From an uncultured Veillonellaceae bacterium (lineage in GTDB: Bacteria > Bacillota > Negativicutes > Selenomonadales > Selenomonadaceae), in contig OMWS01000038.1 of NCBI GenBank assembly GCA_900314825.1, positions 1,200 to 65,199 on the forward strand: a stretch of 64,000 nucleotides of DNA, in the 5' to 3' direction. The first letter of the stretch is position 1, and each line of letters opens with the position of its first letter. A program made the position numbers and the translations under genes. This document shows, one piece after another, positions 33,005 to 62,086 of the stretch. The notes beneath the pieces are model-generated. The model was given only the letters and a program-made list of their open reading frames with translations. It was not told the origin of the DNA and searched no databases.

Positions 33005-33241
33005 ATGGCAAACATCAACAAAAACGAACTGACGAAAGAGCAAATCGAAAAGGCGATGGCCTGCGAGACCGCTGGGGAACTGATGGCGGCGGCAAAGGTC
33101 GAGGGCATCAATCTGACGAAGGACGAGGCCGAGGCGTACATGGCGGAGCTTGCCGATTTCGAGCTGGACGAGGCGACGCTTACACAGGCGGCGGGCGGCG
33201 GTTTTTCGCAATGGTCGGGTTGTCTCACTGTTCGCAAATAA
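33005..33241 (+). CDS. RiPP precursor A1 (Nif11-like leader, GG site); core GFSQWSGCLTVRK
   Basis: Leader MANINKNELTKEQIEKAMACETAGELMAAAKVEGINLTKDEAEAYMAELADFELDEATLTQAAGG. RBS GAGGAGG. Confidence 0.85.
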   Translation: MANINKNELTKEQIEKAMACETAGELMAAAKVEGINLTKDEAEAYMAELADFELDEATLTQAAGGGFSQWSGCLTVRK

Positions 33242-33289
33242 GAACAGATACTGCTATCACATTGGATATTTCAAAGGGAGGTTTTCAAA

Positions 33290-33544
33290 ATGGCAAACAT
33301 CAACAAGAACGAACTGACGAAGGAGCAGATCGAAAAGGCGATGGCGTGCGAGACCGCCGAGGAGCTGATGGCGGCGGCGAAAGCCGAGGGCATCGACCTG
33401 ACGCGGGACGAGGCGGAGGCATACATGGCGGAGCTTGCCGACTTTGAGCTGGACGATAAGACGTTGCAACAGGCGGCGGGGGGCATGAGCTACAGCGACT
33501 TTTTTGGGAAAGGCTGCCCTAACCTGAAGCTTAAAGGTTTCTAA
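33290..33544 (+). CDS. RiPP precursor A2; core MSYSDFFGKGCPNLKLKGF
   Basis: Near-identical leader ending QQAAGG. RBS GGGAGG. Confidence 0.85.
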   Translation: MANINKNELTKEQIEKAMACETAEELMAAAKAEGIDLTRDEAEAYMAELADFELDDKTLQQAAGGMSYSDFFGKGCPNLKLKGF

Positions 33545-33562
33545 AAAACGGAGGTTTTCAAC

Positions 33563-33799
33563 ATGGCAAACATCAACGAAAACGAACTCACGAAAGAGCA
33601 GATCGCAAAGGCAATGGCCTGCGAGACCGCTGGGGAACTGATGGCGGCGGCAAAGGTCGAGGGCATCAATCTGACGAAGGACGAGGCCGAGGCGTATATG
33701 GCGGAACTTGCCGACTTCGAGCTGGATGAGGCGACGATGAAACAGGTGGCCGGAGGTTATTGCCATCGTACCTCGCCGTGCGGCAAGGTATTTTCCTAA
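33563..33799 (+). CDS. RiPP precursor A3; core YCHRTSPCGKVFS
   Basis: Near-identical leader ending KQVAGG. RBS ACGGAGG. Confidence 0.85.
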   Translation: MANINENELTKEQIAKAMACETAGELMAAAKVEGINLTKDEAEAYMAELADFELDEATMKQVAGGYCHRTSPCGKVFS

Positions 33800-33819
33800 A
33801 CAAAACGGAGGTTTTCAAA

Positions 33820-34137
33820 ATGGCAAAGATAAACGAGAACGAACTGACAAAAGAACAAATCGAAAAGGCTATGGCTTGCGAAACCGCCGAGGAGCTGATG
33901 GCGCTGGCAAAGGCAGAGGGCGTCGAGCTCACGAAGGATGAGGCCGAGGCGTACATGGCGGAGCTGGCCGACTTCGAGCTGGACGAGGGGTCACTGAAAC
34001 AGGCGGCGGGCGGTACGCCCCCCGGAATAACCCTGATCTGCAAGAAACGAGATTTTCTGGAATGCGGCGGGCGGTACGCCCCCGGAATAATGCCCGGTAA
34101 GACCGCCTGCGGAGACAAGGGCAAAAGCAAATGGTAA
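33820..34137 (+). CDS. RiPP precursor A4; long, apparently chimeric core TPPGITLICKKRDFLECGGRYAPGIMPGKTACGDKGKSKW
   Basis: Leader MAKINENELTKEQIEKAMACETAEELMALAKAEGVELTKDEAEAYMAELADFELDEGSLKQAAGG. ATG 33820 follows ACGGAGG. See the finding on the internal duplication. Confidence 0.8.
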   Translation: MAKINENELTKEQIEKAMACETAEELMALAKAEGVELTKDEAEAYMAELADFELDEGSLKQAAGGTPPGITLICKKRDFLECGGRYAPGIMPGKTACGDKGKSKW

Positions 34138-34176: not shown

Positions 34177-35709
34177 ATGAGAAAAAGCATCTACGAGATA
34201 ATTCTGCCCTTGGTAGGGGAGGATGACAGGGAAATCGAGGGTAAAGCCCTGCTGGTGAACGGGCTGTATTCTTCTTTTGACGTAGTAGCAAAGGAAGAAG
34301 CGGAAAAATTCGCGGCGGGGGATTTTGCCGCCCTTCCCCTTGCCCTGCGGGAGCGGCTGCTCCTCCGGGGGCATCTCACCCGCAGGAGCGAGGCGGAGGA
34401 AATCGCCGACATGAAGCTCATGGGCCGTGTCTATCGCATGATTCCGGCCCGTGCAGGTCTGGGAGTTGTCATCATGCCCACCTACGACTGCAATTTCCGC
34501 TGCCCCTACTGCTTCGAGCAGCACAGGCTGAAAAAGGGGCAGGAGTGGCTCTCAAGCACCATGAGCCACGAGATGATCGAGGCGGTATTTGCCGCCATAG
34601 AGAATTACAAAGCCAGGGGGTACGCCCTTGGGGGCTGTACCCTCTACGGCGGCGAGCCTTTCCTGGCCGAAAACATCGATGTCCTGCGGGAAATTGCCGG
34701 GCACGCCCAAAAGCTCGGCCTCGCCCTGGACGCCGTCACCAATGGCTACGACCTTGAAGCCTATCTGGATTTTCTGGAGGAGTACGGCTGCAAGCAGCTT
34801 CAGGTGACGGTGGACGGCGTGGGGGAGATCAATGACCGTCGGCGCATCCATAAGGAGGGCCTGCCCACCTATGACCGCATACTGGGCAATGTGGAGCTTG
34901 CCCTGCAGCGGGGCATATCCATCAGCCTGCGGGTGAACGTGGGACGCGAAAATATCTCCGGCATGGGGGCGCTTATCGAAGACCTGCGGGAGCGGGGCTT
35001 CATAGACAAGGAGAAGAAGCGTGCAGTATTTTCCTATTACTTCAAGGCCACCAGCGATGACCGCCATCCCGAAAATAACATCACCGAGCAGGACATCATT
35101 GATGAGCTGAGGAAAAACGGCTTCACAGCCATGGAAGCCATCGGGCTGCAGAGCCAGTACAGCTTGCCGGAGGGGGCACTCAGGCAGATTTTTGCCAAGA
35201 AAGCGCTGCCCCAGCCCTCCCCTGCATACTGCGGCTCGGAGGGTGGGATGCTGGTCATCGACCCCTTCGGCAAGCTCTATCCTTGCTGGGATGTGGTGGC
35301 TACGGAGGGCACTGCCGTGGGCTTCACCGACCTGCAGTCGGGGCGTTTCCTGATGGGGCTCACAAAGGCGAAGTGGCGCACCCGCACTTCGGATCTCCTG
35401 CCCGCCTGTGAGACCTGCCCCTATGTGTTCATTTGCCGGGGCGGCTGCGCTTCCCGCGCCTTTGCCAGCCACGGGAGCTATTTCCGGGAATACTGCGGCG
35501 AGGCCAAGGAAATCTTCGCCTTTGTGGCTTCCCGGGTGGCGGGGGAGACCTGGGCGAAGAACCACGAGAGCGAGCTTTCCCTCTCTCTGGCTGGCCCTCT
35601 CTCCCGCCTGACGGAGGCGGAGCGCAGGACGCTTACAGAGTCCCGCAGCCAGAAGGAAATCTTTGATTGCCTCAAGGCGGCGGGACTTTGGGAGGAAAGC
35701 AGGAAATAA
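34177..35709 (+). CDS. radical SAM/SPASM peptide maturase (rSAM-1)
   Basis: MPTYDCNFRCPYCFE (CxxxCxxC), YGGEPF, and SPASM cysteines CGSEGGMLVIDPFGKLYPCWD...CETCPYVFICRGGCASRA. Paralog of the protein at 60229. Confidence 0.9.
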   Translation: MRKSIYEIILPLVGEDDREIEGKALLVNGLYSSFDVVAKEEAEKFAAGDFAALPLALRERLLLRGHLTRRSEAEEIADMKLMGRVYRMIPARAGLGVVIMPTYDCNFRCPYCFEQHRLKKGQEWLSSTMSHEMIEAVFAAIENYKARGYALGGCTLYGGEPFLAENIDVLREIAGHAQKLGLALDAVTNGYDLEAYLDFLEEYGCKQLQVTVDGVGEINDRRRIHKEGLPTYDRILGNVELALQRGISISLRVNVGRENISGMGALIEDLRERGFIDKEKKRAVFSYYFKATSDDRHPENNITEQDIIDELRKNGFTAMEAIGLQSQYSLPEGALRQIFAKKALPQPSPAYCGSEGGMLVIDPFGKLYPCWDVVATEGTAVGFTDLQSGRFLMGLTKAKWRTRTSDLLPACETCPYVFICRGGCASRAFASHGSYFREYCGEAKEIFAFVASRVAGETWAKNHESELSLSLAGPLSRLTEAERRTLTESRSQKEIFDCLKAAGLWEESRK

Positions 35710-35896: not shown

Positions 35897-36166
35897 ATGA
35901 ACACCAATGGCAAAGAAATCTCTAAGGAAATTATCGCCAAGGCAGTGGAGTGTGAAACCCCCGAAGAGCTGATGGAGCTGGCGGAAAGCGAGGGCATCGA
36001 ACTGACGAAGGATGAGGCCGAGGCGTACATCTCGGAGCTGGCGGACGCGGAGCTCACCGACGCGGAGCTGCAGCAGGTGGCGGGCGGCGATGATGAATGC
36101 AAAGGCTACTGGAAAGGATGCTATGGTCATTGCCCCCAGGTTAAACAGACGGGCGGCATATTTTAA
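35897..36166 (+). CDS. RiPP precursor B1; core DDECKGYWKGCYGHCPQVKQTGGIF
   Basis: Leader ...AVECETPEELMELAESEGIELTKDEAEAYISELADAELTDAELQQVAGG. Confidence 0.8.
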   Translation: MNTNGKEISKEIIAKAVECETPEELMELAESEGIELTKDEAEAYISELADAELTDAELQQVAGGDDECKGYWKGCYGHCPQVKQTGGIF

Positions 36167-36185: not shown

Positions 36186-36419
36186 ATGGCAAACATTAAC
36201 ATGAACGAACTCACCAAAGAGCAAATCGAAAAGGCAATGGGCTGTGAGACAGCCGAGGAACTGATGGCGGTGGCGAAGGCCGAGGGAATCGAGCTGACAA
36301 AGGAGGAGGCCGAGGCGTATCTGGCGGAGCTTTCCGACTTCGAGAATAATGCGGCGGGCGGCGGAAGGCATAGACCCCATCTTTGCCCTGGCAAAAAATC
36401 GAAAAATTCCTATTTATGA
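36186..36419 (+). CDS. RiPP precursor B2; core GRHRPHLCPGKKSKNSYL
   Basis: Leader MANINMNELTKEQIEKAMGCETAEELMAVAKAEGIELTKEEAEAYLAELSDFENNAAGG. Confidence 0.8.
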   Translation: MANINMNELTKEQIEKAMGCETAEELMAVAKAEGIELTKEEAEAYLAELSDFENNAAGGGRHRPHLCPGKKSKNSYL

Positions 36420-36460: not shown

Positions 36461-36705
36461 ATGGCAAACATTAACATGAACGAACTCACCAAAGAGCAAA
36501 TCGAAAAGGCAATGGGCTGCGAGACAGCCGAGGAACTGATGGCGGGGGAATCGAGCTGACAAAGGAGGAGGCCGAGGCGTATCTGGCGGAGCTTTCCGAC
36601 TTTGAGCTGGACGAGGCCACACTGAGGAATGCGGCGGGGGGCGAAGGCTGTTACACCCAAACGTGCACCTGCAGGTTTGAGGGCAAAAAGTTCCACATAG
36701 GCTGA
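36461..36705 (+). pseudogene. RiPP precursor B3, frameshifted by a 13-nt deletion in the leader
   Basis: Identical to B2 up to ...GAACTGATGGCGG, then lacks TGGCGAAGGCCGA. This creates a stop at 36557-36559. The -1 frame continues IELTKEEAEAYLAELSDFELDEATLRNAAGG-EGCYTQTCTCRFEGKKFHIG. Confidence 0.75.
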
Positions 36706-36751: not shown

Positions 36752-38605
36752 ATGAAGGTACAGGAACTTCCGGCCAAGGCGTTTCTTGCCCACCTGCGCC
36801 GTCATCCGCTCCCCGAGATCATGGACGAGGCATGCGATGCCGCCTTGTCTGCCGTTCTCGGGGAATATGGCGGCACCATTACTCACGGGGCGGGACTTGA
36901 GGTGCGCCTGGGGGAGGATGCGCGGTATGTTGATTTTATCATGTCCATCGACCATGATGATATTCCCCATGTTGAGGCGCTTTGGTATGAGATTGACTAT
37001 GGGGAATTCAAAAAAGCCCACGAGACGGGAACAAAGATCATGCCCTGCCTGTTTGCCAATACCGATTTCGGCAAGGACAGCAAGGAGAAATGGGATGAAT
37101 TCCTGCCGGTTTTTTTAGGCGAGGAGCGGGCTAGACGCCTGCGCCCCGCCTTTGATCGGGTGCTGGAGCATCTGCCGGAGGGGGCGTACCCCAAGCAGGT
37201 GGGCACCATGACGAGCCGGGGGGAGCTCCACATCATGCGCCTGGTGATTATATTCCCGGACTGGGATTCCATTCCCGAGGGACTTGTCGCCATTGGCTGG
37301 CAGGGGAACCCCGCAGGTCTCTGTGCTGCGTTCGAGCCATGGAGACAGACAGAACGTATCGCCGTCAATATCGACTTAGGCGAGAAGGGGGTACTGCCGA
37401 AAATCGGCATCGAGGTCTTTTCTCGCTGGCGGCATCCGCTGCTTGTGGATAAAGCCATCGCCCGTCTCGCGGATGCCGGGCTGTGCCTGCCGTCAAAAGC
37501 GGAGGCGCTTCGCCGCTGGATTCGGATTCGACCCGACGGCGACCCGTTTATCCAGACGCTGATTGCTTATTTCAAGCTGAACTACAAGGACGGTAAAATC
37601 ACCGAGGCGAAAGCGTATTTGGAGCAATCGCCCTACGTCCACCATCACTATTTTGATGCCTATGAGCGTCCCGTCTATGTGGAAATTATGGTGGCGAACC
37701 GGGAAAATACTCTTCCCATAGGCACGGCAATGAAGTGGCTCTACGAGTGCGCGGAAAACCGCATAGGCGAAGTGCGTTTTACGGGGGACGTTACGCGATA
37801 CGAACACCTTGACCGGCTGCTTAAGGAATGTAAACAAGAGAGCGACAACGAAGCAGGAAAAATCCGCGCCGTAGTGGAAATTACCAAGAGAGTATCGCCG
37901 ACGTGGCTTGAGAAGATAATCGCCGAGGGTGCGAAGGGCTTTATCGTTGATATCAACGGCGAAGCAGCAGCCGATGAATCGGCTCTTTGGACGCTGAAAA
38001 CCCTTCGTAACAAAGGAGGCAAAAATGTGCGGGCAAGATGGTTCATGCACTGCGGCAATGCCGAAAAACTGCCTCGGGTGATACGTCTTGCGGAAAAATC
38101 AGTCGTCGGGGAACTGATTATAACCGGCATGAAACCGGCGAAAAACAAAGAAATACCGACCCGCGAACAAATGCTTCAAGCGGCGGAGACGATAAAAAAG
38201 TGGCGAGAGAATCATCAAAAAACCGACGGCAACACGGAAAACAATGCCGTGCCGACGGCTTCCCCGGATGGCATGGCGCTGACGGTCGATAGCTGTTTCT
38301 CCCCGCTCCGCGCAATTTTAGCGGGCAAAGACCCGAAGAAAAACGGCAATCGCGGCATCGAGCGGGGCTGCACGGCGGGAAGGGATCATTTTTGCGTCCT
38401 GCCGTCGGGAAAAGTTACGCCCTGCCTGCATCTTGACTGCGCGGAGGACTGCGGCAGTCTTGCCGCATATTGGGACGAATCGCCCACGCTGAAAAAACTG
38501 CGCGACAATGATAACCGCGCCGAAAGTTGCAAGGCTTGCGCCTACAGGCGGCGTTGCTTGCCATGCCCTGCAATATCGGCATGTCCCGTCGGCGCGGAAG
38601 AATAA
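36752..38605 (+). CDS. fusion protein: uncharacterised five-hairpin domain (P-family) + radical-SAM-like barrel lacking CxxxCxxC + SPASM-like Cys cluster
   Basis: The N-terminal ~300 aa are collinear with the 56064, 58003 and 59127 proteins. The middle reads RPVYVEIMVANRENTL...EVRFTGD where rSAMs have CxxxCxxC...GGEP. The C-terminus is GCTAGRDHFCVLPSGKVTPCLHL...CKACAYRRRCLPC. Confidence 0.7.
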   Translation: MKVQELPAKAFLAHLRRHPLPEIMDEACDAALSAVLGEYGGTITHGAGLEVRLGEDARYVDFIMSIDHDDIPHVEALWYEIDYGEFKKAHETGTKIMPCLFANTDFGKDSKEKWDEFLPVFLGEERARRLRPAFDRVLEHLPEGAYPKQVGTMTSRGELHIMRLVIIFPDWDSIPEGLVAIGWQGNPAGLCAAFEPWRQTERIAVNIDLGEKGVLPKIGIEVFSRWRHPLLVDKAIARLADAGLCLPSKAEALRRWIRIRPDGDPFIQTLIAYFKLNYKDGKITEAKAYLEQSPYVHHHYFDAYERPVYVEIMVANRENTLPIGTAMKWLYECAENRIGEVRFTGDVTRYEHLDRLLKECKQESDNEAGKIRAVVEITKRVSPTWLEKIIAEGAKGFIVDINGEAAADESALWTLKTLRNKGGKNVRARWFMHCGNAEKLPRVIRLAEKSVVGELIITGMKPAKNKEIPTREQMLQAAETIKKWRENHQKTDGNTENNAVPTASPDGMALTVDSCFSPLRAILAGKDPKKNGNRGIERGCTAGRDHFCVLPSGKVTPCLHLDCAEDCGSLAAYWDESPTLKKLRDNDNRAESCKACAYRRRCLPCPAISACPVGAEE

Positions 38606-38625: not shown

Positions 38626-38961
38626 ATGGCAAAAGAATTTACTCAGACAACCTCCGAAAGGCCGGGCGGCTGGACCGTCTGGCAGGTGACGGGGCGAATT
38701 GATGTGGCAACCTCCGATGATACCTATGCCAAGGGCGAGGAAATCGTGAAGGCCAAGGAGAAAATCGCCCTTGATATGTCGGAGCTGGAGTATTTCTCAA
38801 GCGCGGGGCTTCGCGTTATTTTGCGCCTCAACAAATTGGCCAAGAAATCCGGGCATGAGTTCACCGTCTGCGGGGCAAACGGCATGGTGAAGTCCGTTTT
38901 GGAAGACAGCGGCATGGACGTACTCTTAAAGGCGAAAGAATCGTTGGATGAGCTGTCGTGA
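38626..38961 (+). CDS. STAS-domain anti-sigma-factor antagonist (RsbV/SpoIIAA-like)
   Basis: ALDMSELEYFSSAGLRVILRLNKLAKKSGHEFTVCGANGMVKSVLEDSGM. ATG follows AAAGGAGAG. Confidence 0.8.
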   Translation: MAKEFTQTTSERPGGWTVWQVTGRIDVATSDDTYAKGEEIVKAKEKIALDMSELEYFSSAGLRVILRLNKLAKKSGHEFTVCGANGMVKSVLEDSGMDVLLKAKESLDELS

Positions 38962-38975: not shown

Positions 38976-39434
38976 ATGGAGCATTCCGATAATGCCGCAA
39001 ACATAAGAATTCCGGTCGGCGAGGACTGGCGGCGCTATGACGCTGAATTGGAATTTTACGAACGCATCAAGGAGGATATTCTCCAAGATGCCGAAGAGGC
39101 GGGAATGTCCCCGAAGCAGGAGTTTAAGCTGGAGCTTGGCATTGAGGAAATTGCCGTCAATATCATCAGCTACGCTTACAAAGATCCCGGCTATATGTTT
39201 ATCCGAACGAAGTCCGACGGCCGGCATTTTCGCCTTGAATTCGTCGATCACGGGGTGCCTTTCGACCCTCTGGTCCAAGCCATGAAACATGGGGAGATTC
39301 CCACCGACGACCAGGACGAAGGAGGCTACGGCATTTTCCTCGTGAAAAAGAATTTTTCTTCCGTTCTATATCGGCATGAGGAAATGTTCGGCAAAACGGC
39401 GAACCACCTCATAATGGAATTGCCCCTGTCATAA
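38976..39434 (+). CDS. anti-sigma regulatory Ser/Thr kinase (RsbW/SpoIIAB-like HATPase)
   Basis: LGIEEIAVNIISYAY...RLEFVDHGVPFDP...GGYGIFLVKK. Confidence 0.75.
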   Translation: MEHSDNAANIRIPVGEDWRRYDAELEFYERIKEDILQDAEEAGMSPKQEFKLELGIEEIAVNIISYAYKDPGYMFIRTKSDGRHFRLEFVDHGVPFDPLVQAMKHGEIPTDDQDEGGYGIFLVKKNFSSVLYRHEEMFGKTANHLIMELPLS

Positions 39435-52203: not shown

Positions 52204-52214
52204 AAAATTTTCAG

Positions 52215-52307: not shown

Positions 52308-52355
52308 TACGCCCAAGTTATGCTATATGTTTAAAATCCAAAGGAGGACAACAAA

Positions 52356-54292: not shown

Positions 54293-54470
54293 CGAGTACA
54301 AGATGTCCCTCACTTCCATAAGTGGGGGCGGCAAATTACTAACAGGCGGCGAGTTAATATCTCCCGCCTCGTTGAAAGGCCAAGAGGAAGTTTTGCCTAC
54401 GGCAAAACTGGAACAATGGCCTTATAAGTAAGAGATCAATTATTAAGGCGTGGCGAAGGGAGGGGAGGTT

Positions 54471-54692: not shown

Positions 54693-54735
54693 TTGCATGT
54701 ACCCAGGGGAACATGTTAGGAGGGTATCCGAATAT

Positions 54736-56046
54736 ATGCTGAAATATTCCCGCTATAACCACATGGTAAAAATACCCGACGAGGATGCCTATGCACTGTT
54801 GAATTTCCGAACGGGGGCTTTTGCACGTTTGAGTCCCTTGCAGAAAGATTTGTTTGAGGTTGCTGCCGATTTAGATGAAAATAGCAGTAAGGTCAAGAAC
54901 TTTCGGCGGGGGGGCTTCCTGGTATCTTATGATGAGTTGCGGCACATGCGTACCCAGGCATATATGGCCAGTGGTTGGGGGCGTGTGCTGGGGTTGACTA
55001 TTTGTCCGACTATGGCTTGCAATTTTGCCTGTCCCTATTGCTTCGAGGAACAGCGGGGCGGCCGCATGAGCAAGGAAACGGAAGATGCCGTGGTAAAGTT
55101 CGCCGATCGTTTTCTGGTGCGTCTGCCTTGTCAGGACATTGGTGTTTCATGGTTCGGCGGCGAGCCGCTTCTTTGCCCGGACATCATCGAGAGCCTGTCC
55201 GAAAAGCTCATGGCACTGGCAGACAAAAGAAATTGCGGGTACCACGCGCGGCTGATCACCAACGGATGGTTCCTGACGCCGGAGATTGTCGCCATGCTGG
55301 AACGAGTGAATGTGATTGAGATGCAGATTACTCTGGACGGGCCGACACCGGAAACCAATGACCATCTGCGACGAGAAAAAAACGGCGGCTCCAGTTTTGC
55401 ACGTATCATGGAGAACTTGGAGAATCTGCATACAAAAAAGATCAAAGTGATGCTTCGTTGCAATTTGCATCGGGAAAACGCCGAGCATTTTGGGGCGTTG
55501 AAGGAGAAGGTGAACCTACTCGCCAAGAAAGCAGGGTTTCCCGTCCGTGTTTATTCGGCTATGATGGATGGATATGCAGGCATGTCCCACGAGATGCAGG
55601 AGGCATCCTTTAATACGAGTGAATTTCGCCGGATGGTTGAGGGCTGGGAAGATTTGCCCGCCCATGTCGATACCGATGCTTACTACCCCTACACCGTCTG
55701 CATGGCCCAGAATTTGACCGGGATCGGCATAGATGAGAACGGCGATCTGTATAAATGCTGGGAAGCGATAGGCAGGGGTGCAAAGGCTTTCGGGAATGTA
55801 CGCGATTTTGACATTCTTCAGGAGCCGGATGGAAATCCGGGCGCATGGGACGAGTATTTCGAGACTCTTTTCCCCGAAAACGACAAGGACTGCATGGAGT
55901 GCAAGGTTTTCCCGATTTGCAAGGGCGGCTGCCCCCACAAACGGCTGACGGGCAGGCGTACCTGCTTGCCCGTAAAAGCGGATCCCGATGGCTACGTTCT
56001 CCATCGTTATCGCATTTGGCAGGAAAAACGACAAAACAGACCATAG
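54736..56046 (+). CDS. radical SAM/SPASM peptide maturase (rSAM-3)
   Basis: CPTMACNFACPYCFE, WFGGEPLL, and SPASM CMAQNLTGIGIDENGDLYKCWE...CMECKVFPICKGGCPHK. N-terminus MLKYSRYNHMV. Confidence 0.9.
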   Translation: MLKYSRYNHMVKIPDEDAYALLNFRTGAFARLSPLQKDLFEVAADLDENSSKVKNFRRGGFLVSYDELRHMRTQAYMASGWGRVLGLTICPTMACNFACPYCFEEQRGGRMSKETEDAVVKFADRFLVRLPCQDIGVSWFGGEPLLCPDIIESLSEKLMALADKRNCGYHARLITNGWFLTPEIVAMLERVNVIEMQITLDGPTPETNDHLRREKNGGSSFARIMENLENLHTKKIKVMLRCNLHRENAEHFGALKEKVNLLAKKAGFPVRVYSAMMDGYAGMSHEMQEASFNTSEFRRMVEGWEDLPAHVDTDAYYPYTVCMAQNLTGIGIDENGDLYKCWEAIGRGAKAFGNVRDFDILQEPDGNPGAWDEYFETLFPENDKDCMECKVFPICKGGCPHKRLTGRRTCLPVKADPDGYVLHRYRIWQEKRQNRP

Positions 56047-56063
56047 ATGAAAGGGGCAGATGT

Positions 56064-57125
56064 ATGCGAGACGATTGCGGTATCTTAGGAGAGACGAGGC
56101 TTTCCCGCAATTTTCAAAGGTTGATGAGACGGGCGGCAGCGAATGGTCGAGACGAAGCACTTTTCGGTCAAAAGTACATTGCAGCAGCAAACGAGGTTGT
56201 CAAAAAAAGCTCCTTGCGCCACATGCCACGGACGAGTTTCTGCCTGGAGTTTCCTCTGACGGGCAAACCCTACATGGATATTTTCGTGAACCTCCAGTGC
56301 GGAAAAATGGAAGCTCCGGTAAAGTTTGAAGTCGGTGATGGTTTCGGGCTGGCATTTTTCGTCAATGCTTGCGCCGCGGATGAAACCCTGAAGGATTACC
56401 AGTTGTACTTTACCTTCGATCTCTCCGCTGACAGGCACATACCCAACGTCTATTTGTTGCCGCCCAACAGGAAAGGAAATATCTCGTATGTTCTCGCCAT
56501 GATGGATAAGTTGAATGCTCTTGAACGGAAAGAACAAACGGCAACGGTTCTGGGGAAAGTACCCTCGGGGTGGCAAATTTACTATGCCGGTTTCATGCAC
56601 ACAAGAACGGACGCCCCCCTGCGCCTGGGGTTTGTAGCCAATCCTGAATGTGTACGCGGGTACGCAAGGGACAGTTCCTTGCTGGCCCGGGATTTTAACG
56701 TCTTTTATCCCGGGGGGCTTACGGAGGTTCTTCAGGAACAGCTTTCTTTGCTGGCCGATGCGATCGAGGCGGGGGCGGAAATGGAGATACAGCTTGACCT
56801 GCTTCCCAATGGCAGCTTCGGCGACAATATCGCTGTTTCGCCTTCCCTTGGATTCAATTATGCCGATGTGCGGCGAGCCGATGAGACCATGGCCGGTGAC
56901 AGGGTAACGAGGATTATGGAGCTTTTTTCCCGTTGGGGTGTGTCAGACGATCGCTGGCGTCTCATGGGACAGGCTTGCTACGGAGTGGAGCGCATTGCCC
57001 AGGATGGGGACAATCGACGCCTGGTGGCGGATGTGGTGCAGCTAAGTGCTATCAAGGTGCGCTTTAACAGAAACGGCGCATCTCTCGCCAAGGGCTATCT
57101 TATCGCCACGTCGTGGGATTTATGA
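56064..57125 (+). CDS. P-family protein 1 (uncharacterised; five beta-hairpin units)
   Basis: FCLEFPLTGKPYMDIFVNL / LYFTFDLSADRHIPNVYLLPP / IYYAGFMHTRTDAPLRLGFV / EMEIQLDLLPNGSFGDNIAVS / LSAIKVRFNRNGASLAKGYLIA. ATG follows AAAGGGG. Confidence 0.75.
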   Translation: MRDDCGILGETRLSRNFQRLMRRAAANGRDEALFGQKYIAAANEVVKKSSLRHMPRTSFCLEFPLTGKPYMDIFVNLQCGKMEAPVKFEVGDGFGLAFFVNACAADETLKDYQLYFTFDLSADRHIPNVYLLPPNRKGNISYVLAMMDKLNALERKEQTATVLGKVPSGWQIYYAGFMHTRTDAPLRLGFVANPECVRGYARDSSLLARDFNVFYPGGLTEVLQEQLSLLADAIEAGAEMEIQLDLLPNGSFGDNIAVSPSLGFNYADVRRADETMAGDRVTRIMELFSRWGVSDDRWRLMGQACYGVERIAQDGDNRRLVADVVQLSAIKVRFNRNGASLAKGYLIATSWDL

Positions 57126-57180
57126 TTTCGGTTTTACCAGTCTGGCCGACAATTTGTAACGGAACAGGCTGTAAAATAAA

Positions 57181-57230
57181 TGGGACATCGCAAACCATTT
57201 TTGGAAATGTCCCAACCATATTATTTTATT
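57181..57230 (+). terminator. stem-loop with T-rich tail (possible internal terminator or attenuator)
   Basis: TGGGACAT-(18 nt)-ATGTCCCA followed by ACCATATTATTTTATT. Confidence 0.35.
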
Positions 57231-57253
57231 GTGTCCTAAAAGGAGGATGACAA

Positions 57254-57481
57254 ATGGATAACCAGTTCGATCCCCGTAAATTCTCGAAGGAGCAGCTTCA
57301 ACAGGCTGTGGCCTGCGAGACGCCGGAGGAACTCTTGGATCTTGCCAAGAAAAACGGCATAGAGATGACGCCGGAGCAAGCAAAGAAGTACCTCGCTGAG
57401 ATGGAGAACCTTGAGCTTGACCTCTCCGACGACCAGATGGAAGCGGTTGCCGGTGGTAGTTGCGCTTGGTTCTATCCCTGA
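57254..57481 (+). CDS. RiPP precursor D1; core SCAWFYP
   Basis: ...KEQLQQAVACETPEELLDLAKKNGIEMTPEQAKKYLAEMENLELDLSDDQMEAVAGG. RBS AAAGGAGG. Confidence 0.8.
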   Translation: MDNQFDPRKFSKEQLQQAVACETPEELLDLAKKNGIEMTPEQAKKYLAEMENLELDLSDDQMEAVAGGSCAWFYP

Positions 57482-57514
57482 TAGGAAAATGAAAAAAGAG
57501 AGGAGAAACATGAT

Positions 57515-57793
57515 ATGGCAAACAAATTTGATTGGAAATCTCTTTCAGATGAGCAGCGGCGGGAGCTTTTGAAGAAAGCCGCTGCTTGCGAAACGCCGGA
57601 AGAGCTCATGGCTCTCGCCAAGGAGCAGGGGTTGGAAATGACGGAGGAACAGGCAAAAAATAAACTTGAGGAACTGGAAAACCTTGAGATCGATCTCTCC
57701 GATGAGCAGCTCAAAGCTGCGGCCGGCGGTTTTAGCTGTCACAATGGCCAGGGGCTGTGCCTGTCCGATTCGGGTGAATGGTTTGGTTGCTGA
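57515..57793 (+). CDS. RiPP precursor D2; core FSCHNGQGLCLSDSGEWFGC
   Basis: ...LLKKAAACETPEELMALAKEQGLEMTEEQAKNKLEELENLEIDLSDEQLKAAAGG. Confidence 0.8.
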   Translation: MANKFDWKSLSDEQRRELLKKAAACETPEELMALAKEQGLEMTEEQAKNKLEELENLEIDLSDEQLKAAAGGFSCHNGQGLCLSDSGEWFGC

Positions 57794-57891
57794 CGTTTTC
57801 CGATAATGGTATAGCGCCTCGATCTGGGTCGTCTTTGTTGCTTTGGATGATTGCTGACACCGACGGCTGCGGTCTTGGCAGTTGCATCGTT

Positions 57892-57931
57892 TTGCGGAGT
57901 GCTTTTGCAGTGCTCCGCAAGACTTGTCTAT
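57892..57931 (+). promoter_or_regulatory. stem-loop plus third copy of CTTGTCTAT
   Basis: TTGCGGAG-TGCttttGCAgtg-CTCCGCAA contains GGAGTGC-TTTT-GCAGTGC (compare 52214-52236), followed by CTTGTCTAT at 57923-57931, 72 nt before the P2 start. Confidence 0.4.
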
Positions 57932-58002
57932 TGCTATGAAATGGAATTGCGTAGTACAAGCCGTTGCTTCGCATGGAAATTTATGGCAGAGGGGGCTATC
58001 GA

Positions 58003-59103
58003 ATGGGCAACATTTTATCCTTGCCGGATATCGTGCAGGATTTTCGCCGCATTTATCAAAAAGCGGCGGCAGAGGGGCGCGAGGCAAGGCTTTTTGGGGA
58101 GGAAACTCTTGAAAAAGCATGCGCTGTCCTGCGGTGCGGTGCCATAAAAGATGCAAGGGAGGCGGCGGGCTTCTACTTCGAGTTTCCCCTGTCGGGCACG
58201 CCCTGCATGGATCTGTTGCTTCAATATACCTGTGACGCATTTCCTTCCCCCGTTAAATTCGCGGAAGGGGATGGCTTTGGCTTGCAGAACTTTTTCGATG
58301 ACTGCGCCGGCGATGAAGGCCTTATGGGGTATGGATGTGGCTTCTCCTTCGATCTTTCCCGTGAGACCTCCGTTGACAACATTGGACTTCCCGGCATTTA
58401 TCTTGTACCGCCCCCCTCGCGTGCTAATGTAGATTATGTTCCTTTGATGCTGAAACGGCTTGGAAAAGCGGATTGTATTCCCCAGGTAATGGGTGCTTTT
58501 GCTGCTGCGCCGCCGAGATGGCGTCCTTATTATGCGGGGTGCATGGCAGGGCGGGTCGGCGGGCCGGTGAGGCTTGGCTTTTTCCTGCCGAGGGAAAGTC
58601 AGGCGTATTATTCCACACATCCCCTCGGATTGGCTGAGGAAATCGAGCTATACGGAGGACATAACCTTTTGTCGGAAGAAAAGGACAAGTTTTCCTATCT
58701 CATCCAAAACGGCGGTGTGTGGGATTTGCAGTTTGACCTTTGTCCCGATGGTACCTTTGCTGATGCATTGGGCGTTACGCTTGACATGGGAGTTGGCGGT
58801 GCCGATCCACGTAACTCCGAGGAATTCATGATGAAAGGCAAGGCCGGGCAAATCATGAGGTGTCTGGAAAGCTGGGGGCTGGCAGATTCCCGATGGCACG
58901 AGATGGGCAGAGCCTGTTACGGTGTCCTTCGCATGGTGCGTGAAAACGGGCGGTGGCGTGCCGTAGGTGATACGGTGCGGCTGAATACTGTCAAGGTGCG
59001 CTTCAGGGAAGGGCGGGCCTATCTTGCCAAGGGTTACCTTTTTGCGCAATCATACTGTATTTCGAAGAATATGAATAATTCGTCAGAGCCTGAGTTGAAA
59101 TAG
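58003..59103 (+). CDS. P-family protein 2
   Basis: FYFEFPLSGTPCMDLLLQY / CGFSFDLSRE..LPGIYLVPP / PYYAGCMAGRVGGPVRLGFFL / VWDLQFDLCPDGTFADALGVT / LNTVKVRFREGRAYLAKGYLFA. Confidence 0.75.
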   Translation: MGNILSLPDIVQDFRRIYQKAAAEGREARLFGEETLEKACAVLRCGAIKDAREAAGFYFEFPLSGTPCMDLLLQYTCDAFPSPVKFAEGDGFGLQNFFDDCAGDEGLMGYGCGFSFDLSRETSVDNIGLPGIYLVPPPSRANVDYVPLMLKRLGKADCIPQVMGAFAAAPPRWRPYYAGCMAGRVGGPVRLGFFLPRESQAYYSTHPLGLAEEIELYGGHNLLSEEKDKFSYLIQNGGVWDLQFDLCPDGTFADALGVTLDMGVGGADPRNSEEFMMKGKAGQIMRCLESWGLADSRWHEMGRACYGVLRMVRENGRWRAVGDTVRLNTVKVRFREGRAYLAKGYLFAQSYCISKNMNNSSEPELK

Positions 59104-59126
59104 AGTTTGTAGAAGGCGGTGGTCAA

Positions 59127-60152
59127 ATGTTACCGGCGGAGACAGTATTTGACGCTCTCATGGATCGTGCGGCAAATGAAGTAACGATGAAATCGGTGTT
59201 CGGGTCACTGGGTGAACAGAGGGCCTTGCTTCACGAAAAACTTTGCGGTCATGGGTTCAGCCAGATTTTTTTGGAAATCCCCCTCGACGGGGAGGCTGGA
59301 TTTGACCTGCACATCATCCATGATGCCGAAGATATTCGGCGTGGCACTTATGAAGAAAATTTGTATGGTAATCGCGGTTCACTCTTTGCCTGGTATGCTG
59401 GCGAACCTTCGTGCGGCGATGGGCTGGATGTGGTGTATGATCTGCGGGAAGATAAAGAGGCTTCTCCAATGGTCTATCTCAAGATGTCAGATGATACGCC
59501 GGATTTCGATGGTTTTTTCCGTGAGACGGGAGATGAGGGGGCAGGCAGAAGGTTTCATGCGCTGACAAAGTCTCTTCCCTCCGGCTGGCATCCTTGGTAC
59601 ACGGGGGTGCATATGAAGCGGAAAGGGAAACCGTTGCGCATTGGAAGCGGCCTGACTGATTTTGCAAAGAGGCGTTACGCAGGCAATCCGCGCTTTTTGG
59701 CCGATGACTTGAAAGCCTTGGGGTTTACTGCCTGGCTTTCCCCCATGATGATAGACAAGCTCCGTGAGTTGTTTGCTTTTCCGTGGCCGGTGGATGTCCA
59801 ACTTGATTTGCTGGATGACGGTTCCGTGGGGGATGTACTGGGGATCAGTCTTTGCACGGGAAACATGGGGCGGGATGCGCTGCGTGCTTCCCTTGAGCAT
59901 GGAGACTTGCAGGAGCTTATGTTGCTCTTGGAGAGTTACGGCGTTTCGGATGCCAGGTGGAAAAAACTGGGAAATACTGTATTCCAAGTTTTGGCTCTGC
60001 TTCATTCCGATGATGGGAATAAATGCCGATATATACTCTCGGGAAATCTCGGCTTTGTTAAAGTGCGATTCCAAGGGACAGGTGCATTGGCTCTGGATGC
60101 CAAAGTATACCTTAACCTGAGGGCAGTTAGATTCGGTAAGGATGATGGTTGA
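59127..60152 (+). CDS. P-family protein 3
   Basis: IFLEIPLDGEAGFDLHIIH / LDVVYDLREDKEASPMVYLKM / PWYTGVHMKRKGKPLRIGSG / PVDVQLDLLDDGSVGDVLGIS / LGFVKVRFQGTGALALDAKVYLNL. Confidence 0.75.
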   Translation: MLPAETVFDALMDRAANEVTMKSVFGSLGEQRALLHEKLCGHGFSQIFLEIPLDGEAGFDLHIIHDAEDIRRGTYEENLYGNRGSLFAWYAGEPSCGDGLDVVYDLREDKEASPMVYLKMSDDTPDFDGFFRETGDEGAGRRFHALTKSLPSGWHPWYTGVHMKRKGKPLRIGSGLTDFAKRRYAGNPRFLADDLKALGFTAWLSPMMIDKLRELFAFPWPVDVQLDLLDDGSVGDVLGISLCTGNMGRDALRASLEHGDLQELMLLLESYGVSDARWKKLGNTVFQVLALLHSDDGNKCRYILSGNLGFVKVRFQGTGALALDAKVYLNLRAVRFGKDDG

Positions 60153-60228
60153 ATGCCGCACGGGGAGTATCGCAAAAAAACGAACAGTCCTGGGGAGAAT
60201 TTTGGCGCGAGAAACAGGGAGAAAACAA

Positions 60229-61773
60229 ATGAGACTCAGCAATTATGAGATGATTCTGCCTCTGATTGGTGCGGACGAAAAGGAAATCGATGACAGGGCA
60301 CTTTTGGTGAATGGCCTTTACGGCGCATTTGACATCGTGCCGAAGCGTTGCGCGGATTTTCTTATAAAGGGAAAGTTTTCGCAGGTGGATTCTTCCCTAT
60401 GGGAGCAGCTGGCAAGACGTGGTCATATCACAACCAAATCACTGGAGGAAGAAATTGCGGATCTGGAGCTTCTGGCACATATTGACCGGCGGATCATACA
60501 GAAGAGCCGCATTGATCTTATCATCATGCCGACCTATGATTGCAATTTCCGTTGCCCCTATTGTTTCGAGCGAAAGCGTTTGGCAAGGGGCGAAACGTGG
60601 CTTGCAAAGGTCATGAGCCATGAAATGATTCAGGCGATCTTTGCTGCTTTGGATGATTACCGATCCAGAGGCTACGGCCTTGGCAACTGCACGCTATACG
60701 GTGGTGAACCGCTCATGAAGGAAAATCTTGCTACCGTGAGGGAAATCGCCGAAAACTGCGCCCAGCGGGAAATGAAGATAGAGGTTCTGACCAACGGTTA
60801 TGATTTGGCTTCATTCATTCCCATCATCAAGGAATTTCCCTTCGTGTTCGTACAGGTTCCTCTTGACGGTGTCGGAAAGACAAATGACAGGCTTCGACGG
60901 CACAAAGAGGGCAAAGATACCTACGAACGGATATTGAACAATGTGGATATGGCCTTGGAACATGGCATTGGCGTAAATATGCGCATCAACATTTCCAAGG
61001 AAAATCTTTCCAGCATAGATGAATTGACTGATGACCTGAAGCGTCGCGGTTTCCTGGCAAAAGAGAATGAACGCCGCATGGGGCAGAACCAGCGGGGGGA
61101 ATTTGTCCACTATTTCAAGGCAACGGTAACACCTGACAGAAATTCCTTCCTCGGCGAGGGAGGCGTCGCCAGGGAACTGCTGGAAAGCGGTCGCAGTGCT
61201 GAGTATGTCATGGAGCATTCTTGTCTTTATGGTATAGTGGCGCGGTATATCCGCAAGCTGTTTCAAAAAGATACCTATGTGGATTTTTCCACTGCCATTT
61301 GTAACGCAGAACGCGGCGCGCTTTTGGTTGACCCTTACGGGCTGCTCTTCCCGTGCTGGGAATCAGTTGGTGATGATGATATGGCGGTTGGCCGCGTGGA
61401 TGAGACGCAAGGGCGCGTTTTGTGGAACTTTGCCAAAGCAAAGTGGCGACTCAGAACCTCGGACAGGATACCTGCCTGCCGTATTTGTCCGTATAATTTC
61501 TTTTGCAAAGGCGGCTGCGCCGCACGAGCCAAAGATGTCTATGGCGACTATTTCCGCGAGTATTGCGGCGATCACAAGCAAGCATTTGCCTTTGCAGCCT
61601 CGCATATAGCAGGGAAAATGTGGCAAGAGCGAGGCGAGGCGGAGCTGTCATTGTCTTTGGCAGAGCCGCTGGCGCACTTGACAAGGAAGGAACGGTATAT
61701 GATTATGAATTCCAAGAGTATTCCCGATGTCTTTGCCATCGTAAAAAAGGCAGGCCTTTTACCACAGATATAG
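60229..61773 (+). CDS. radical SAM/SPASM peptide maturase (rSAM-4; paralog of rSAM-1)
   Basis: MPTYDCNFRCPYCFE, YGGEPLM, CNAERGALLVDPYGLLFPCWE...CRICPYNFFCKGGCAARA. Collinear with the 34177 protein over the full length, including the C-terminal ...ELSLSLA.PL..LT..ER tail. Confidence 0.9.
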   Translation: MRLSNYEMILPLIGADEKEIDDRALLVNGLYGAFDIVPKRCADFLIKGKFSQVDSSLWEQLARRGHITTKSLEEEIADLELLAHIDRRIIQKSRIDLIIMPTYDCNFRCPYCFERKRLARGETWLAKVMSHEMIQAIFAALDDYRSRGYGLGNCTLYGGEPLMKENLATVREIAENCAQREMKIEVLTNGYDLASFIPIIKEFPFVFVQVPLDGVGKTNDRLRRHKEGKDTYERILNNVDMALEHGIGVNMRINISKENLSSIDELTDDLKRRGFLAKENERRMGQNQRGEFVHYFKATVTPDRNSFLGEGGVARELLESGRSAEYVMEHSCLYGIVARYIRKLFQKDTYVDFSTAICNAERGALLVDPYGLLFPCWESVGDDDMAVGRVDETQGRVLWNFAKAKWRLRTSDRIPACRICPYNFFCKGGCAARAKDVYGDYFREYCGDHKQAFAFAASHIAGKMWQERGEAELSLSLAEPLAHLTRKERYMIMNSKSIPDVFAIVKKAGLLPQI

Positions 61774-61774
61774 T

Positions 61775-61828
61775 AAATGACAATAATATATATGTCATTT
61801 GCCATATACAATGTCTCAACTCTATCAT
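61775..61828 (+). promoter_or_regulatory. palindrome overlapping a candidate promoter for precursor E1
   Basis: AAATGACA-(10 nt)-TGTCATTT at 61775-61800. TTGCCA (61799-61804), 18 nt, TATCAT (61823-61828). Confidence 0.35.
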
Positions 61829-61849
61829 TTTTAATGGGAGGTATTTAGC

Positions 61850-62086
61850 ATGGGAAACATCGACAAAAGCAAACTCACCGAGGCGCAGATACAGAAAGCA
61901 ATGGCATGCAGCAGCGTTGAGGAACTGATGAAAGTGGCCAAGGAAGAGGGCTATGAGCTTACCGAGGACGAGGCCAAAGCGTATTTTGCAGAGATGGAGG
62001 ACTTTGAACTGGACGGTGACAAGTTGAAAGATGTGGCGGGCGGCGGTTTTGCGGGTAGCCAGTGCTATGCCAAAACTGGCTGCTGA
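61850..62086 (+). CDS. RiPP precursor E1; core GFAGSQCYAKTGC
   Basis: MGNIDKSKLTEAQIQKAMACSSVEELMKVAKEEGYELTEDEAKAYFAEMEDFELDGDKLKDVAGG. Confidence 0.8.
   Translation: MGNIDKSKLTEAQIQKAMACSSVEELMKVAKEEGYELTEDEAKAYFAEMEDFELDGDKLKDVAGGGFAGSQCYAKTGC

Follow-up and report, generated by a model that had tools for sequence, protein, structure and literature searches.

In this work, a 64,000-nucleotide stretch of DNA from an uncultured Veillonellaceae bacterium (contig OMWS01000038.1; the whole stretch is called the window) was analysed, and its region 33005-62086 was assigned with near certainty to a multi-cassette island for peptides that are made ribosomally and then modified post-translationally (RiPPs), all inventoried genes of which lie on the + strand. 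The island is modular, with four cassettes, one exporter, and one regulatory set, and belongs to a strain of Selenomonas ruminantium from the rumen, a diderm within the Negativicutes. The island contains ten intact Nif11-like precursors with a GG-ending leader, a broken precursor copy (B3), a leader-like small open reading frame (ORF; C2), four radical S-adenosylmethionine (rSAM)/SPASM enzymes, an NHLM-type export set, and partner-switching regulators together with an extracytoplasmic function (ECF)-type sigma factor. In addition, it contains four domains of an unannotated family, namely U1, U2, U3, and the N-terminus of a 617-aa fusion protein (FUS), which are predicted to have the alpha-beta-beta-alpha (ABBA) or prenyltransferase-barrel (PT-barrel) fold. 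We hypothesize, giving it somewhat better than an even chance, that the four cassettes and the one exporter produce rSAM-crosslinked peptides, some of which would also be prenylated on Trp, by analogy with known peptide prenyltransferases. Genes were called from Pfam and NCBIfam scans, and the cut-offs given are the curated NCBIfam thresholds. A sequence-only reading of this DNA had already proposed a RiPP island with many precursors, common leaders, and unrelated cores, and both a leader hidden Markov model (HMM) and TIGR03798 bear it out. It had also treated the four rSAM enzymes as the full enzyme set, which proved incomplete: U1, U2, U3, and the fusion had been left unidentified.

The members of the unannotated family in the island are as follows.
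56064-57125, + strand: U1, 353 aa, predicted ABBA/PT-barrel prenyltransferase-like protein, 36% identical to U2
57964-59103, + strand: U2, 379 aa from a TTG start (ATG at 58003), predicted fold from an AlphaFold2 model and Foldseek
59127-60152, + strand: U3, 341 aa, the paralogue nearest to the wider family
36752-38605, + strand: FUS, 617 aa, predicted ABBA-like N-terminal domain (residues about 1-300), rSAM-like barrel without CxxxCxxC, and SPASM domain

U1, U2, and U3 are paralogues (26-36% identical) for which no Pfam match even at E 10, no NCBIfam match, and no PDB sequence or profile match was found; ten distant members of the family likewise showed no Pfam domain. U2 has 37 relatives among 5.8 billion clustered proteins, all of them unnamed or 'hypothetical', with S. 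ruminantium and Schwartzia as the named sources, and the picture for U3 is similar. A profile search of 1.84 billion representatives (50% identity) gave 302 members of the family at E <= 0.001. Because no model matches these members, tools based on Pfam and NCBIfam would not name the family. The AlphaFold2 model of U2, built from a 36-sequence alignment, has a mean predicted local distance difference test score (pLDDT) of 90.2 and a predicted template modelling score of 0.89, and its helices alternate with strand pairs. When this model was compared with the PDB by Foldseek, the top 41 matches were all ABBA (PT-barrel) aromatic prenyltransferases at probability 1.00, including CymD (E 6.6e-6), NphB/Orf2, DMATS1, AmbP1, AmbP3, FamD1, MpnD, TleC, IptA, and FunA; the cyanobactin enzymes PatF, PirF, and LimF stood lower in the list. 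An ABBA fold is thus predicted for the U family from the model. In 145 members, with identities that go down to about 25%, ten charged or aromatic residues show conservation of 95% or more (E73, D83, D130, R197, R203, D308, R310, K344, K356, and Y358), and the model places seven of them on predicted barrel strands, K344 and the i/i+2 pair K356-x-Y358 among these. U1 keeps the conserved charged residues of the family. On the model, this pattern indicates a predicted conserved active site. In the ABBA fold of the NphB, DMATS, and PagF families, a set of Arg, Lys, and Tyr with Asp and Glu binds the prenyl diphosphate and Mg2+. The conserved residues of the U family are of this kind.

The peptide cores next to the U genes have a composition of their own. 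The core types adjoining stand-alone U genes are SCAWFYP, FSCHNGQGLCLSDSGEWFGC, RDCGWYYD, ELCWEVCHSPSTY, RCWDICYRTVL, ACPGYCLYNKW, TCDINTSDGKCTWYYH, LCWENCLDDF, ICWDNCNYQAVLL, KFWDFDNCSYYGVD, SCWSHCGNHCNDRDS, CWSCVVVCQKVKCHSYYG, WCNDCSSDGQCGAPYWR, and WGHCSQEKYGCGMVGH, and both Trp and Cys occur in every one of these 14 distinct types. Trp occurs in 7 of 15 cores from other cassettes, compared with 14 of 14 here (Fisher p = 0.002, a value that overstates independence since the U-associated cores are partly related to each other), and it makes up 7.9% of U-associated core residues versus 1.3% of the residues in the enzymes of the cluster. Even so, it is Trp that sets the U-associated cores apart from the other cores.

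The fusion protein carries a fourth putative domain of this kind. FUS is recognised by Pfam only through its SPASM domain; its relatives, which number more than 220 and of which none is named, come from Selenomonas, Schwartzia, and Acidaminococcaceae. It has no CxxxCxxC motif, and no invariant Cys triad was found in the middle domain across 42 homologues; all 42 aligned sequences share eight Cys in the SPASM region. Its AlphaFold2 model (pLDDT 85) gave PqqE, SuiB, CteB, and SkfB as the top Foldseek matches and also matched TigE, over about 320-350 columns. From these structural matches and the missing CxxxCxxC, residues about 300-617 form a predicted radical-SAM/SPASM fold that lacks the usual binding of the SAM cluster. 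The Foldseek list of the full protein is dominated by this half and is therefore no test of the N-terminal domain alone. In the models, the first 300 residues have the same pattern of helices and strand pairs as U2. The 145-sequence U-family HMM matched all 120 of 120 FUS homologues, with a best score of 32 bits and 18.9 bits for FUS of the window, compared with 7.7 bits for the best of 3000 shuffles, and the domain keeps nine of the ten conserved residues (all but D308). On account of the HMM scores against shuffles, the retained residues, and the common pattern, the N-terminus of FUS is treated here as a putative, divergent fourth U domain.

The four rSAM enzymes announced by the sequence-only reading each have Radical_SAM and SPASM signatures, one CxxxCxxC motif, and a Cys-rich C-terminus.
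34177-35709, + strand: rSAM_A, 510 aa, CNFRCPYC at residue 105 (Pfam Radical_SAM and Fer4_12; NCBIfam SPASM domain)
52623-54179, + strand: rSAM_C1, CNCKCRHC at residue 139 (Pfam)
54697-56046, + strand: rSAM_C2, CNFACPYC at residue 108 (Pfam), the conserved partner of the U genes
60142-61773, + strand: rSAM_E, CNFRCPYC at residue 134 (Pfam)

rSAM_E and rSAM_A are paralogues with 47% identity. The nearest solved structures by sequence are CteB (5wgg) for rSAM_A and rSAM_C2, and SkfB (6efn) and PqqE for rSAM_C1. None of the four reaches the equivalog cut-off of PapB/SCIFF, AlbA/StsB, CefB, Clo7bot, TIGR04463, TIGR04064, or TIGR04103. The best family of rSAM_A is TIGR04463 (128.9 bits vs a cut-off of 525) and that of rSAM_C2 is TIGR04334 (204 bits vs 600), and the best scores against named rSAM families were 204/600 for TIGR04334, 189/525 for TIGR04463, 108/340 for PapB, and 78/519 for TIGR04064. 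In agreement with the earlier statement that no product could be recognised, none of the enzymes of the island reaches the cut-off of a characterised NCBIfam maturase family, and no one-to-one match to a characterised pathway was found.

The organisation of the cassettes was compared with that of related loci (numbered L001 onwards) from the isolates S. ruminantium HD4, S. ruminantium S137, and Selenomonas sp. AB3002, from Schwartzia-type sources, and from rumen and gut metagenome-assembled genomes (MAGs) and metagenomes. These loci do not bear out the idea that each precursor group adjoins its own modifying enzyme; they show four units instead. The first consists of the rSAM gene at 34177 and the 617-aa fusion with the A and B precursors, the second of the rSAM gene at 52623 with C1, the third of the rSAM gene at 54697 and U1, U2, and U3 with D1 and D2, and the fourth of the rSAM gene at 60142 with E1. 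Three arrangements recur. In (a), an rSAM_A-type gene precedes one or more precursors with A-type leaders, and these precede the fusion, often with genes for STAS, RsbW, and RsbU behind it; in (b), a sigma factor gene is followed by the gene for a classical Nif11 precursor and that by an rSAM_C1-type gene; in (c), an rSAM_C2-type gene leads into one or two U1-type genes, after which come a pair of D-type precursors, U2, and U3. The last arrangement has its own NHLM ABC pair in L004, L006, and L019. An rSAM_C2-type gene stands together with U genes in L001, L004, L006-L010, L013, L018, L019, L021, and L022, and orthologous D1/D2 pairs were found in L003, L004, L006, L007, L021, and L022. Because this unit recurs in related loci, the rSAM gene at 54697 belongs with group D rather than with C2 alone. 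The leader subtype follows the enzyme set; in strain HD4, the core KKDSRCMYIGY has an A-type leader and precedes the fusion, and the core ICWEICHSPGTY has a D-type leader and precedes a U2-type gene. Since the module order varies between strains, the island is best seen as a set of exchangeable cassettes. U2 of the window is 99% identical to a gene of the MAG S. ruminantium RUG12626 (L003), an independently assembled genome with which 48640-62216 aligns at 96-99.5% identity, small indels aside.

The precursors are listed below.
33005-33241, + strand: A1, A-type Nif11-like leader ending in GG (leader HMM, TIGR03798)
33290-33544, + strand: A2, A-type Nif11-like leader ending in GG (leader HMM, TIGR03798)
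33563-33799, + strand: A3, A-type Nif11-like leader ending in GG (leader HMM, TIGR03798)
33820-34137, + strand: A4, A-type Nif11-like leader ending in GG (leader HMM, TIGR03798)
35897-36166, + strand: B1 (leader HMM, TIGR03798)
36186-36419, + strand: B2 (leader HMM, TIGR03798)
36461-36702, + strand: B3, pseudogene, a copy of B2 that lacks 13 bp inside the leader and is frameshifted
52356-52604, + strand: C1, classical Nif11 leader, core FYMAMANITPIS (TIGR03798, 40.7 bits)
54450-54692, + strand: C2, small ORF with a leader-like C-terminal half (ending in ELSDEELTRLAAAG) and a variable 8-aa tail
57254-57481, + strand: D1, D-type Nif11-like leader, core SCAWFYP
57515-57793, + strand: D2, D-type Nif11-like leader, core FSCHNGQGLCLSDSGEWFGC
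61850-62086, + strand: E1, A-type leader, core GFAGSQCYAKTGC

An HMM was made from seven leaders quoted in the sequence-only reading and searched against all six-frame stop-to-stop segments of the window. It found ten segments at E 1e-28 to 1e-35, covering A1-A4, B1, B2, D1, D2, and E1, as well as B3 as two half-matches in different frames (E 1e-13 and 1e-14); C1 reached E 0.0098 only, and nothing else in the 64 kb fell below E 0.28. In the A array (A1-A4, 33005-34137), the leaders match at E 1e-33 to 1e-35 and form DNA repeats of 83-92% identity, and the cores are unrelated; over all leaders, the DNA repeat families have 60-96% identity. TIGR03798, the Nif11-like leader family, was the top family for 10 of the 11 precursors scanned, C2 being the one without a match. 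Its cut-off of 32.3 bits is exceeded by A2 (32.4), B1 (34.4), and C1 (40.7), and the others score below it: D1 31.9, E1 31.4, D2 30.3, A4 25.9, A1 25.7, A3 24.6, and B2 21.9. Of the twelve common-leader precursors proposed earlier, ten are thus intact and B3 is a frameshifted copy, with the reservation that C1 belongs to the classical Nif11 subtype and that C2 has neither a Nif11 match nor GG. The twelve core sequences had been given correctly. The leader ends in GG in 11 of the 12 and in AAAG in C2. Before the GG, the A-type and D2 leaders have the spacing L(X)4L (LDEATL, LSDEQL), the second Leu being replaced by Met in D1; such hydrophobic spacing is bound by C39 domains and by the prenyltransferase MppC (PMC12715784). 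The leader Cys is indeed present in 10 of the 12 precursors. In the distant relatives L007, L013, and L024 it is replaced by Ala, and for this reason, judged by sequence, it is unlikely to be an obligatory modification site.

The status of C2 as a precursor is uncertain. The possibility that it is a chance ORF (no Nif11 match, AAAG instead of GG, absent from L004 and L006) was dropped after intact homologues were found in L008 (5553-5812) and L009 (5579-5811), with about 85% protein conservation and each directly before an rSAM gene. The conserved part ends in ELS(D/E)EELTR(L/F)AAAG, the 8-aa tail (S/N)IFxxKKx is more variable, and the DNA upstream of C2 is paralogous to that upstream of C1. 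C2 could be an unconventional precursor or a small regulator. As for C1, sister strains have extra C-type precursors with the Cys-rich cores GECGIISAMGRHWRKCGCVAAGIGQ and GVCYILGRGNSSSGNCVCPVVGNG (L003 3717-4239; L008 3111-3395), and L003 also contains a duplicated fragment of the sigma gene. In the window, the only C-type core next to the rSAM gene at 52623 is the Cys-free FYMAMANITPIS. As only this Cys-free core was kept, the usual substrate of this enzyme may be missing in the window.

The export genes and the regulators embedded between the cassettes are the following.
44531-45754, + strand: RND_mfp-type adaptor (Pfam)
45735-46721, + strand: NHLM HlyD adaptor (Pfam, NHLM families)
46723-48948, + strand: NHLM ABC1, ATP-binding cassette (ABC) transporter with C39 peptidase (Pfam, NCBIfam)
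48979-51687, + strand: NHLM ABC2, second ABC subunit (Pfam, NCBIfam)
32260-32985, + strand: truncated TolC-family channel gene, 241 aa, N-terminal half (Pfam OEP, E 1.9e-20)
38626-38961, + strand: STAS anti-sigma antagonist (Pfam, TIGR00377)
38976-39434, + strand: RsbW-like HATPase kinase, HATPase_c_2 (Pfam)
39472-41661, + strand: dCache-HAMP-PP2C sensor phosphatase, SpoIIE/RsbU-like (Pfam)
51709-52203, + strand: ECF-type sigma-70 factor, 164 aa (Pfam Sigma70_r2 and r4_2; TIGR02937, 74.5 bits vs 42.9)

The single NHLM-type export set of C39-ABC, second ABC, and HlyD proteins was confirmed by three families above cut-off (TIGR03796, 962.9 vs 853.3; TIGR03797, 720.8 vs 709.4; TIGR03794, 238.5 vs 156.2) and by Peptidase_C39 at E 8.5e-31 in 46723-48948; there are two HlyD-type adaptor genes, not one. 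The TolC fragment (positions 2-156 of 414 of the TIGR01844 profile) lies directly upstream of A1 and outside 33005-62086, which suggests that the A array was joined at the TolC fragment by rearrangement. The embedded regulators were also confirmed, by Pfam STAS, HATPase_c_2, and SpoIIE and by the ECF sigma factor. The STAS, RsbW, and RsbU-like genes are encoded together, and the same trio follows FUS in Selenomonas sp. AB3002 and occurs in L002, L003, and L009. The sigma factor gene follows ABC2 in L002, L003, L008, and L009. That partner switching acts on the ECF sigma factor at 51709 is a guess.

We propose the following course of events. The dCache phosphatase would sense a signal, partner switching would release the sigma factor, and the cassettes would be transcribed. 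Each rSAM enzyme would then bind its cognate leader subtype and crosslink the Cys-containing core; given CteB as the nearest solved relative, a thioether crosslink as in ranthipeptides seems most probable. Within the D cassette, the rSAM enzyme encoded at 54697 would crosslink D1 and D2 through Cys, and U1-U3 would afterwards move a prenyl group from dimethylallyl diphosphate (DMAPP), geranyl diphosphate, or farnesyl diphosphate to the core Trp while the leader is still attached; with three U paralogues, further prenylated positions are possible. Prenylation in the A/B cassette would fall to the fusion protein, whose degenerate rSAM/SPASM half would serve as a peptide-binding or Fe-S module and not as a radical enzyme. 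In the structure of CteB, an auxiliary cluster reportedly holds the Cys-containing peptide, a suggested parallel for the SPASM half of the fusion. Finally, the C39 domain would cleave after GG, and the ABC/adaptor/TolC system would export the product across both membranes. The two adaptors and a TolC-type channel fit two-membrane export, since the Negativicute host is diderm.

Several points weigh against this reading, the chemistry and regulation of which are inferred throughout. The TM-scores of the U2 matches are modest (0.40-0.51, with root-mean-square deviations of 7-9 Å), so U2 would be a distant member of the ABBA fold, and searches of Pfam, NCBIfam, and PDB sequences and profiles gave no sequence-level tie between the U family and a known family of prenyltransferases. 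The conserved residues are placed in the U2 model to strand level only and not by side-chain orientation. Taken alone, the hhalign match between the U and fusion families is weak (E 0.11, colinear over 235 columns). Since every U-associated core contains Cys as well as Trp, S-prenylation or a different target is possible. RsbW-type anti-sigma kinases classically control group-3 and not ECF-type sigma factors. Moreover, because the island holds decayed parts, namely the B3 frameshift, the truncated TolC gene, and a stop in a FAD-dependent oxidoreductase gene described below, some cassettes may be inactive.

The first alternative is that the U proteins are PT-barrel-like without being prenyltransferases, and that they use another anionic or phosphorylated donor or act as cyclases, chaperones, or immunity or binding proteins; we consider this less likely than prenyl transfer, though a real possibility. 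It draws on the absence of sequence similarity to prenyltransferase families and on the low TM-scores just given, on the presence of PatF, a natural inactive ABBA member, among the Foldseek matches, and on the fact that no prenyl-diphosphate synthase gene was found in the cluster. On the other hand, DMAPP and longer diphosphates are available in any bacterium via undecaprenyl-phosphate synthesis. The structural matches in the top 41 places were without exception ABBA prenyltransferases, the conserved Arg, Lys, and Tyr with Asp and Glu resemble the set that binds diphosphate and Mg2+, and the strict association with Trp-containing cores fits indole prenylation.

According to the second alternative, the five precursor groups are each served by a neighbouring rSAM enzyme, the products are rSAM-crosslinked only, and the U genes and the fusion are accessory or irrelevant. 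The four rSAM/SPASM enzymes and the common leaders are real, and rSAM-only cassettes are present (C1 with the gene at 52623, E1 with that at 60142). Yet this alternative is very unlikely: in many loci, particular rSAM genes and leader subtypes have the U genes and the fusion as conserved companions, ten residues kept at 95% or more in a family diverged to about 25% identity are the mark of an enzyme, and the rSAM gene at 54697 travels with D-type precursors, not with C2, in L004, L006, L007, L021, and L022.

The third alternative, that the locus is a decaying or mis-assembled mosaic of recombined cassette fragments and not a working supercluster, concerns the integrity of the DNA itself. It could appeal to the three decayed genes named above, to a module order that varies by strain, to transposase and phage-like genes upstream, and to a perfect repeat that flanks the block from HlyD to E1, exactly where homology to the nearest MAG breaks.
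44300-44399, + strand: perfect 100-nt direct repeat, copy 1, with a sigma-70-like TTGTCA-17-TAAGAT inside
62217-62316, + strand: perfect 100-nt direct repeat, copy 2; the homology to L003 ends at 62216

The copies lie 17,917 bp apart. An Rfam scan of 28000-64000 gave nothing at E <= 0.1, so the repeat is not a known RNA, and an exact search in 13 related loci found no copy. The repeat has the look of a recombination junction, of a promoter region that was duplicated, or possibly of an assembly join. We nevertheless regard the mosaic as very unlikely, since no break interrupts the long ORFs of the four rSAM genes, the three U genes and the fusion, of the two ABC and two adaptor genes, or of the regulators, the independent MAG agrees with 48640-62216 at the identity given above, the same cassettes occur in the cultured S. 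ruminantium HD4 and S137 and in Selenomonas sp. AB3002, and decay affects only redundant copies and passengers.

Nif11/NHLM systems with many precursors are of a known kind, as are rSAM/SPASM maturases. The island has in common with the Nif11/NHLP-leader systems with NHLM export (Haft, Basu and Mitchell 2010, PMC2887384) the long GG-ending Nif11-like leaders, the unrelated cores, and the C39-ABC, second ABC, and HlyD adaptor proteins. It differs in that its host is a rumen Negativicute and not a cyanobacterium or proteobacterium, that most of its leaders form a lineage-specific subtype, which carries a C-E/K-T motif and scores at the family cut-off or below it, and that its maturases are rSAM and ABBA-like proteins instead of LanM or cyclodehydratases. 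Like the maturases CteB (5wgg), PapB, SkfB (6efn), and AlbA, the four rSAM enzymes combine an rSAM core and SPASM with an N-terminal extension and are encoded with Cys-containing cores, whereas they score far below the equivalog cut-offs of ranthipeptide/SCIFF and sactipeptide maturases and their leaders are Nif11-like. The ABBA prenyltransferases PagF, LimF, PatF, CymD, NphB/Orf2, and DMATS1 share the predicted PT-barrel with U2 and are all among its Foldseek matches, but the identity in structural alignments is 9-13% with no profile match, and the U family is confined to gut and rumen anaerobes and linked to rSAM genes. FUS resembles the pseudo-SAM/SPASM family TIGR04347, the name of which recognises this degenerate kind, in having an rSAM-like fold with SPASM and without a functional SAM-cluster motif. 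However, TIGR04347 is not among the four weak NCBIfam matches of FUS, and FUS also has the predicted N-terminal ABBA-like domain, an architecture that was not found described in the literature searched.

By analogy, the closest characterised counterpart is the soluble alpha-beta-beta-alpha prenyltransferase MppC from Moorena producens; it depends on a Nif11-like leader, prefers a heptapeptide core that is already macrocyclised, and attaches a geranyl group to indole C-5 of one Trp (PMC12715784). Cyanobactin prenyltransferases, by comparison, act without a leader (PMC12715784). The likeness to the MppC/MppE/MppM prenylated lanthipeptide pathway is that the D1 core SCAWFYP is a Trp heptapeptide with a Nif11-like leader beside genes of predicted ABBA fold. 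In contrast, the macrocyclase here would be a radical-SAM/SPASM enzyme instead of LanM, and each cassette has three to four ABBA-like paralogues; the U family, set beside MppC by description, has no detectable sequence similarity to the known families of prenyltransferases. For short cores such as SCAWFYP, ComQ/ComX of Bacillus offers an analogy of function, in that a short ribosomal peptide with a prenylated Trp is an exported signal there. ComQ, however, has a polyprenyl-synthase-like fold and not an ABBA fold, the ComX system has no rSAM, Nif11 leader, or C39 export, and a signalling role of the peptides here is pure speculation.

A wider joint reading, which we put forward as a tentative possibility, would make the U family a new sequence-orphan, leader-dependent clade of peptide prenyltransferases of gut and rumen anaerobes that forms, together with the rSAM enzymes, short crosslinked Trp-prenylated peptides; the degenerate rSAM/SPASM half of FUS would be reused as a substrate-binding module, and the short products would perhaps be ComX-like signals. 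SCAWFYP-type products might then feed back through the dCache sensor and the sigma factor rather than being bacteriocins. If true, this would be a RiPP class uniting rSAM macrocyclisation and lipidation. Prenylation of peptides has been described for ComX, the cyanobactins, and a few lanthipeptides and lasso peptides (PMC12715784). In the literature searched, the coverage of which left most subscription journals outside, no characterised equivalent (an rSAM and prenyltransferase RiPP, or a Selenomonas RiPP), no report of peptide prenylation coupled to rSAM crosslinking, and none of a prenyltransferase-like domain fused to SPASM was found. Against this literature, the sequence-orphan ABBA-fold family tied to rSAM RiPP cassettes of anaerobes, the ABBA-like fusion to a degenerate rSAM/SPASM, and the strict association with Cys/Trp cores appear to be new. 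If active, the U family would add a sequence-orphan enzyme family of about 300 representatives and define a class of lipidated rSAM RiPPs, and leader-dependent prenyltransferases that accept crosslinked peptides would be useful for lipidated macrocycles. Clusters of rumen Selenomonas called as 'sactipeptide' by antiSMASH are in some cases expressed in rumen metatranscriptomes, and such clusters are differentially expressed in cattle of differing feed efficiency (PMC8241843). No report dissecting them was found in the literature searched, and their real chemistry bears on rumen microbial interactions. There is also a lesson for annotation, as the rSAM genes draw attention and the most unusual genes are the 'hypothetical proteins' between them.

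Two further genes lie between the regulators and the exporter.
41676-42515, + strand: alpha-acetolactate decarboxylase with a signal peptide (Pfam)
42529-44013, + strand: FAD-dependent oxidoreductase with an in-frame TAA at 43048-43050 (Pfam, sequence)

Both are absent from the AB3002 locus and not conserved in related clusters, and they are probably passengers. Selenocysteine read-through in the oxidoreductase was ruled out, the in-frame stop being TAA. This protein has a twin-arginine-like signal (SRRDFVK), and an intact 470-aa homologue, 82% identical, is encoded in L005 about 6 kb upstream of U2/U3 genes. The N-terminal signal peptide of the alpha-acetolactate decarboxylase is unusual for this enzyme.

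The motif CTTGTCTAT occurs five times in the window versus 0.36 expected, and three copies are intergenic on the + strand (52240, 54280, and 57923): one 116 nt before the start of C1, a second ahead of C2, and a third ahead of U2, immediately past a 15-bp hairpin. It was found at corresponding places in L003 (3601, 4412, 6452, and 9960), L008 (2995 and 5090), L009 (5437), and L021 (4075), and is a candidate promoter or operator common to the cassettes downstream of the sigma gene. The hairpin itself (57889-57923, 15-bp stem) lies directly after D2 and before U2, and could be a partial terminator that sets the ratio of precursor to enzyme. Simple scans for sigma-70 promoters and terminators gave counts about 1 to 2.6 standard deviations above shuffled controls, and they were not used for operon definition. 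Near-identical D cassettes and distant U loci (L004, L006, L007, L012, and L013) were seen in MAGs labelled Clostridiales, Lachnospiraceae, Eggerthellaceae, Atopobiaceae, and Oscillospiraceae, a spread that points to horizontal transfer between anaerobes of the gut and rumen, or else to contamination during binning.

Upstream of the island, positions 1-31100 of the window look like a phage or mobile-element replication region, with the following genes.
11603-14752: DnaE-like polymerase (phrog_405, E 1e-255)
165-989 and 16638-19730: SNF2-type helicases
3688-4965 and 26605-28134: two RRXRR/HNH endonucleases
28659-29609: PD-(D/E)XK transposase-family gene, with a 92-nt repeat beside it (29283 and 29629)
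29960-31066: IS605 OrfB/TnpB gene

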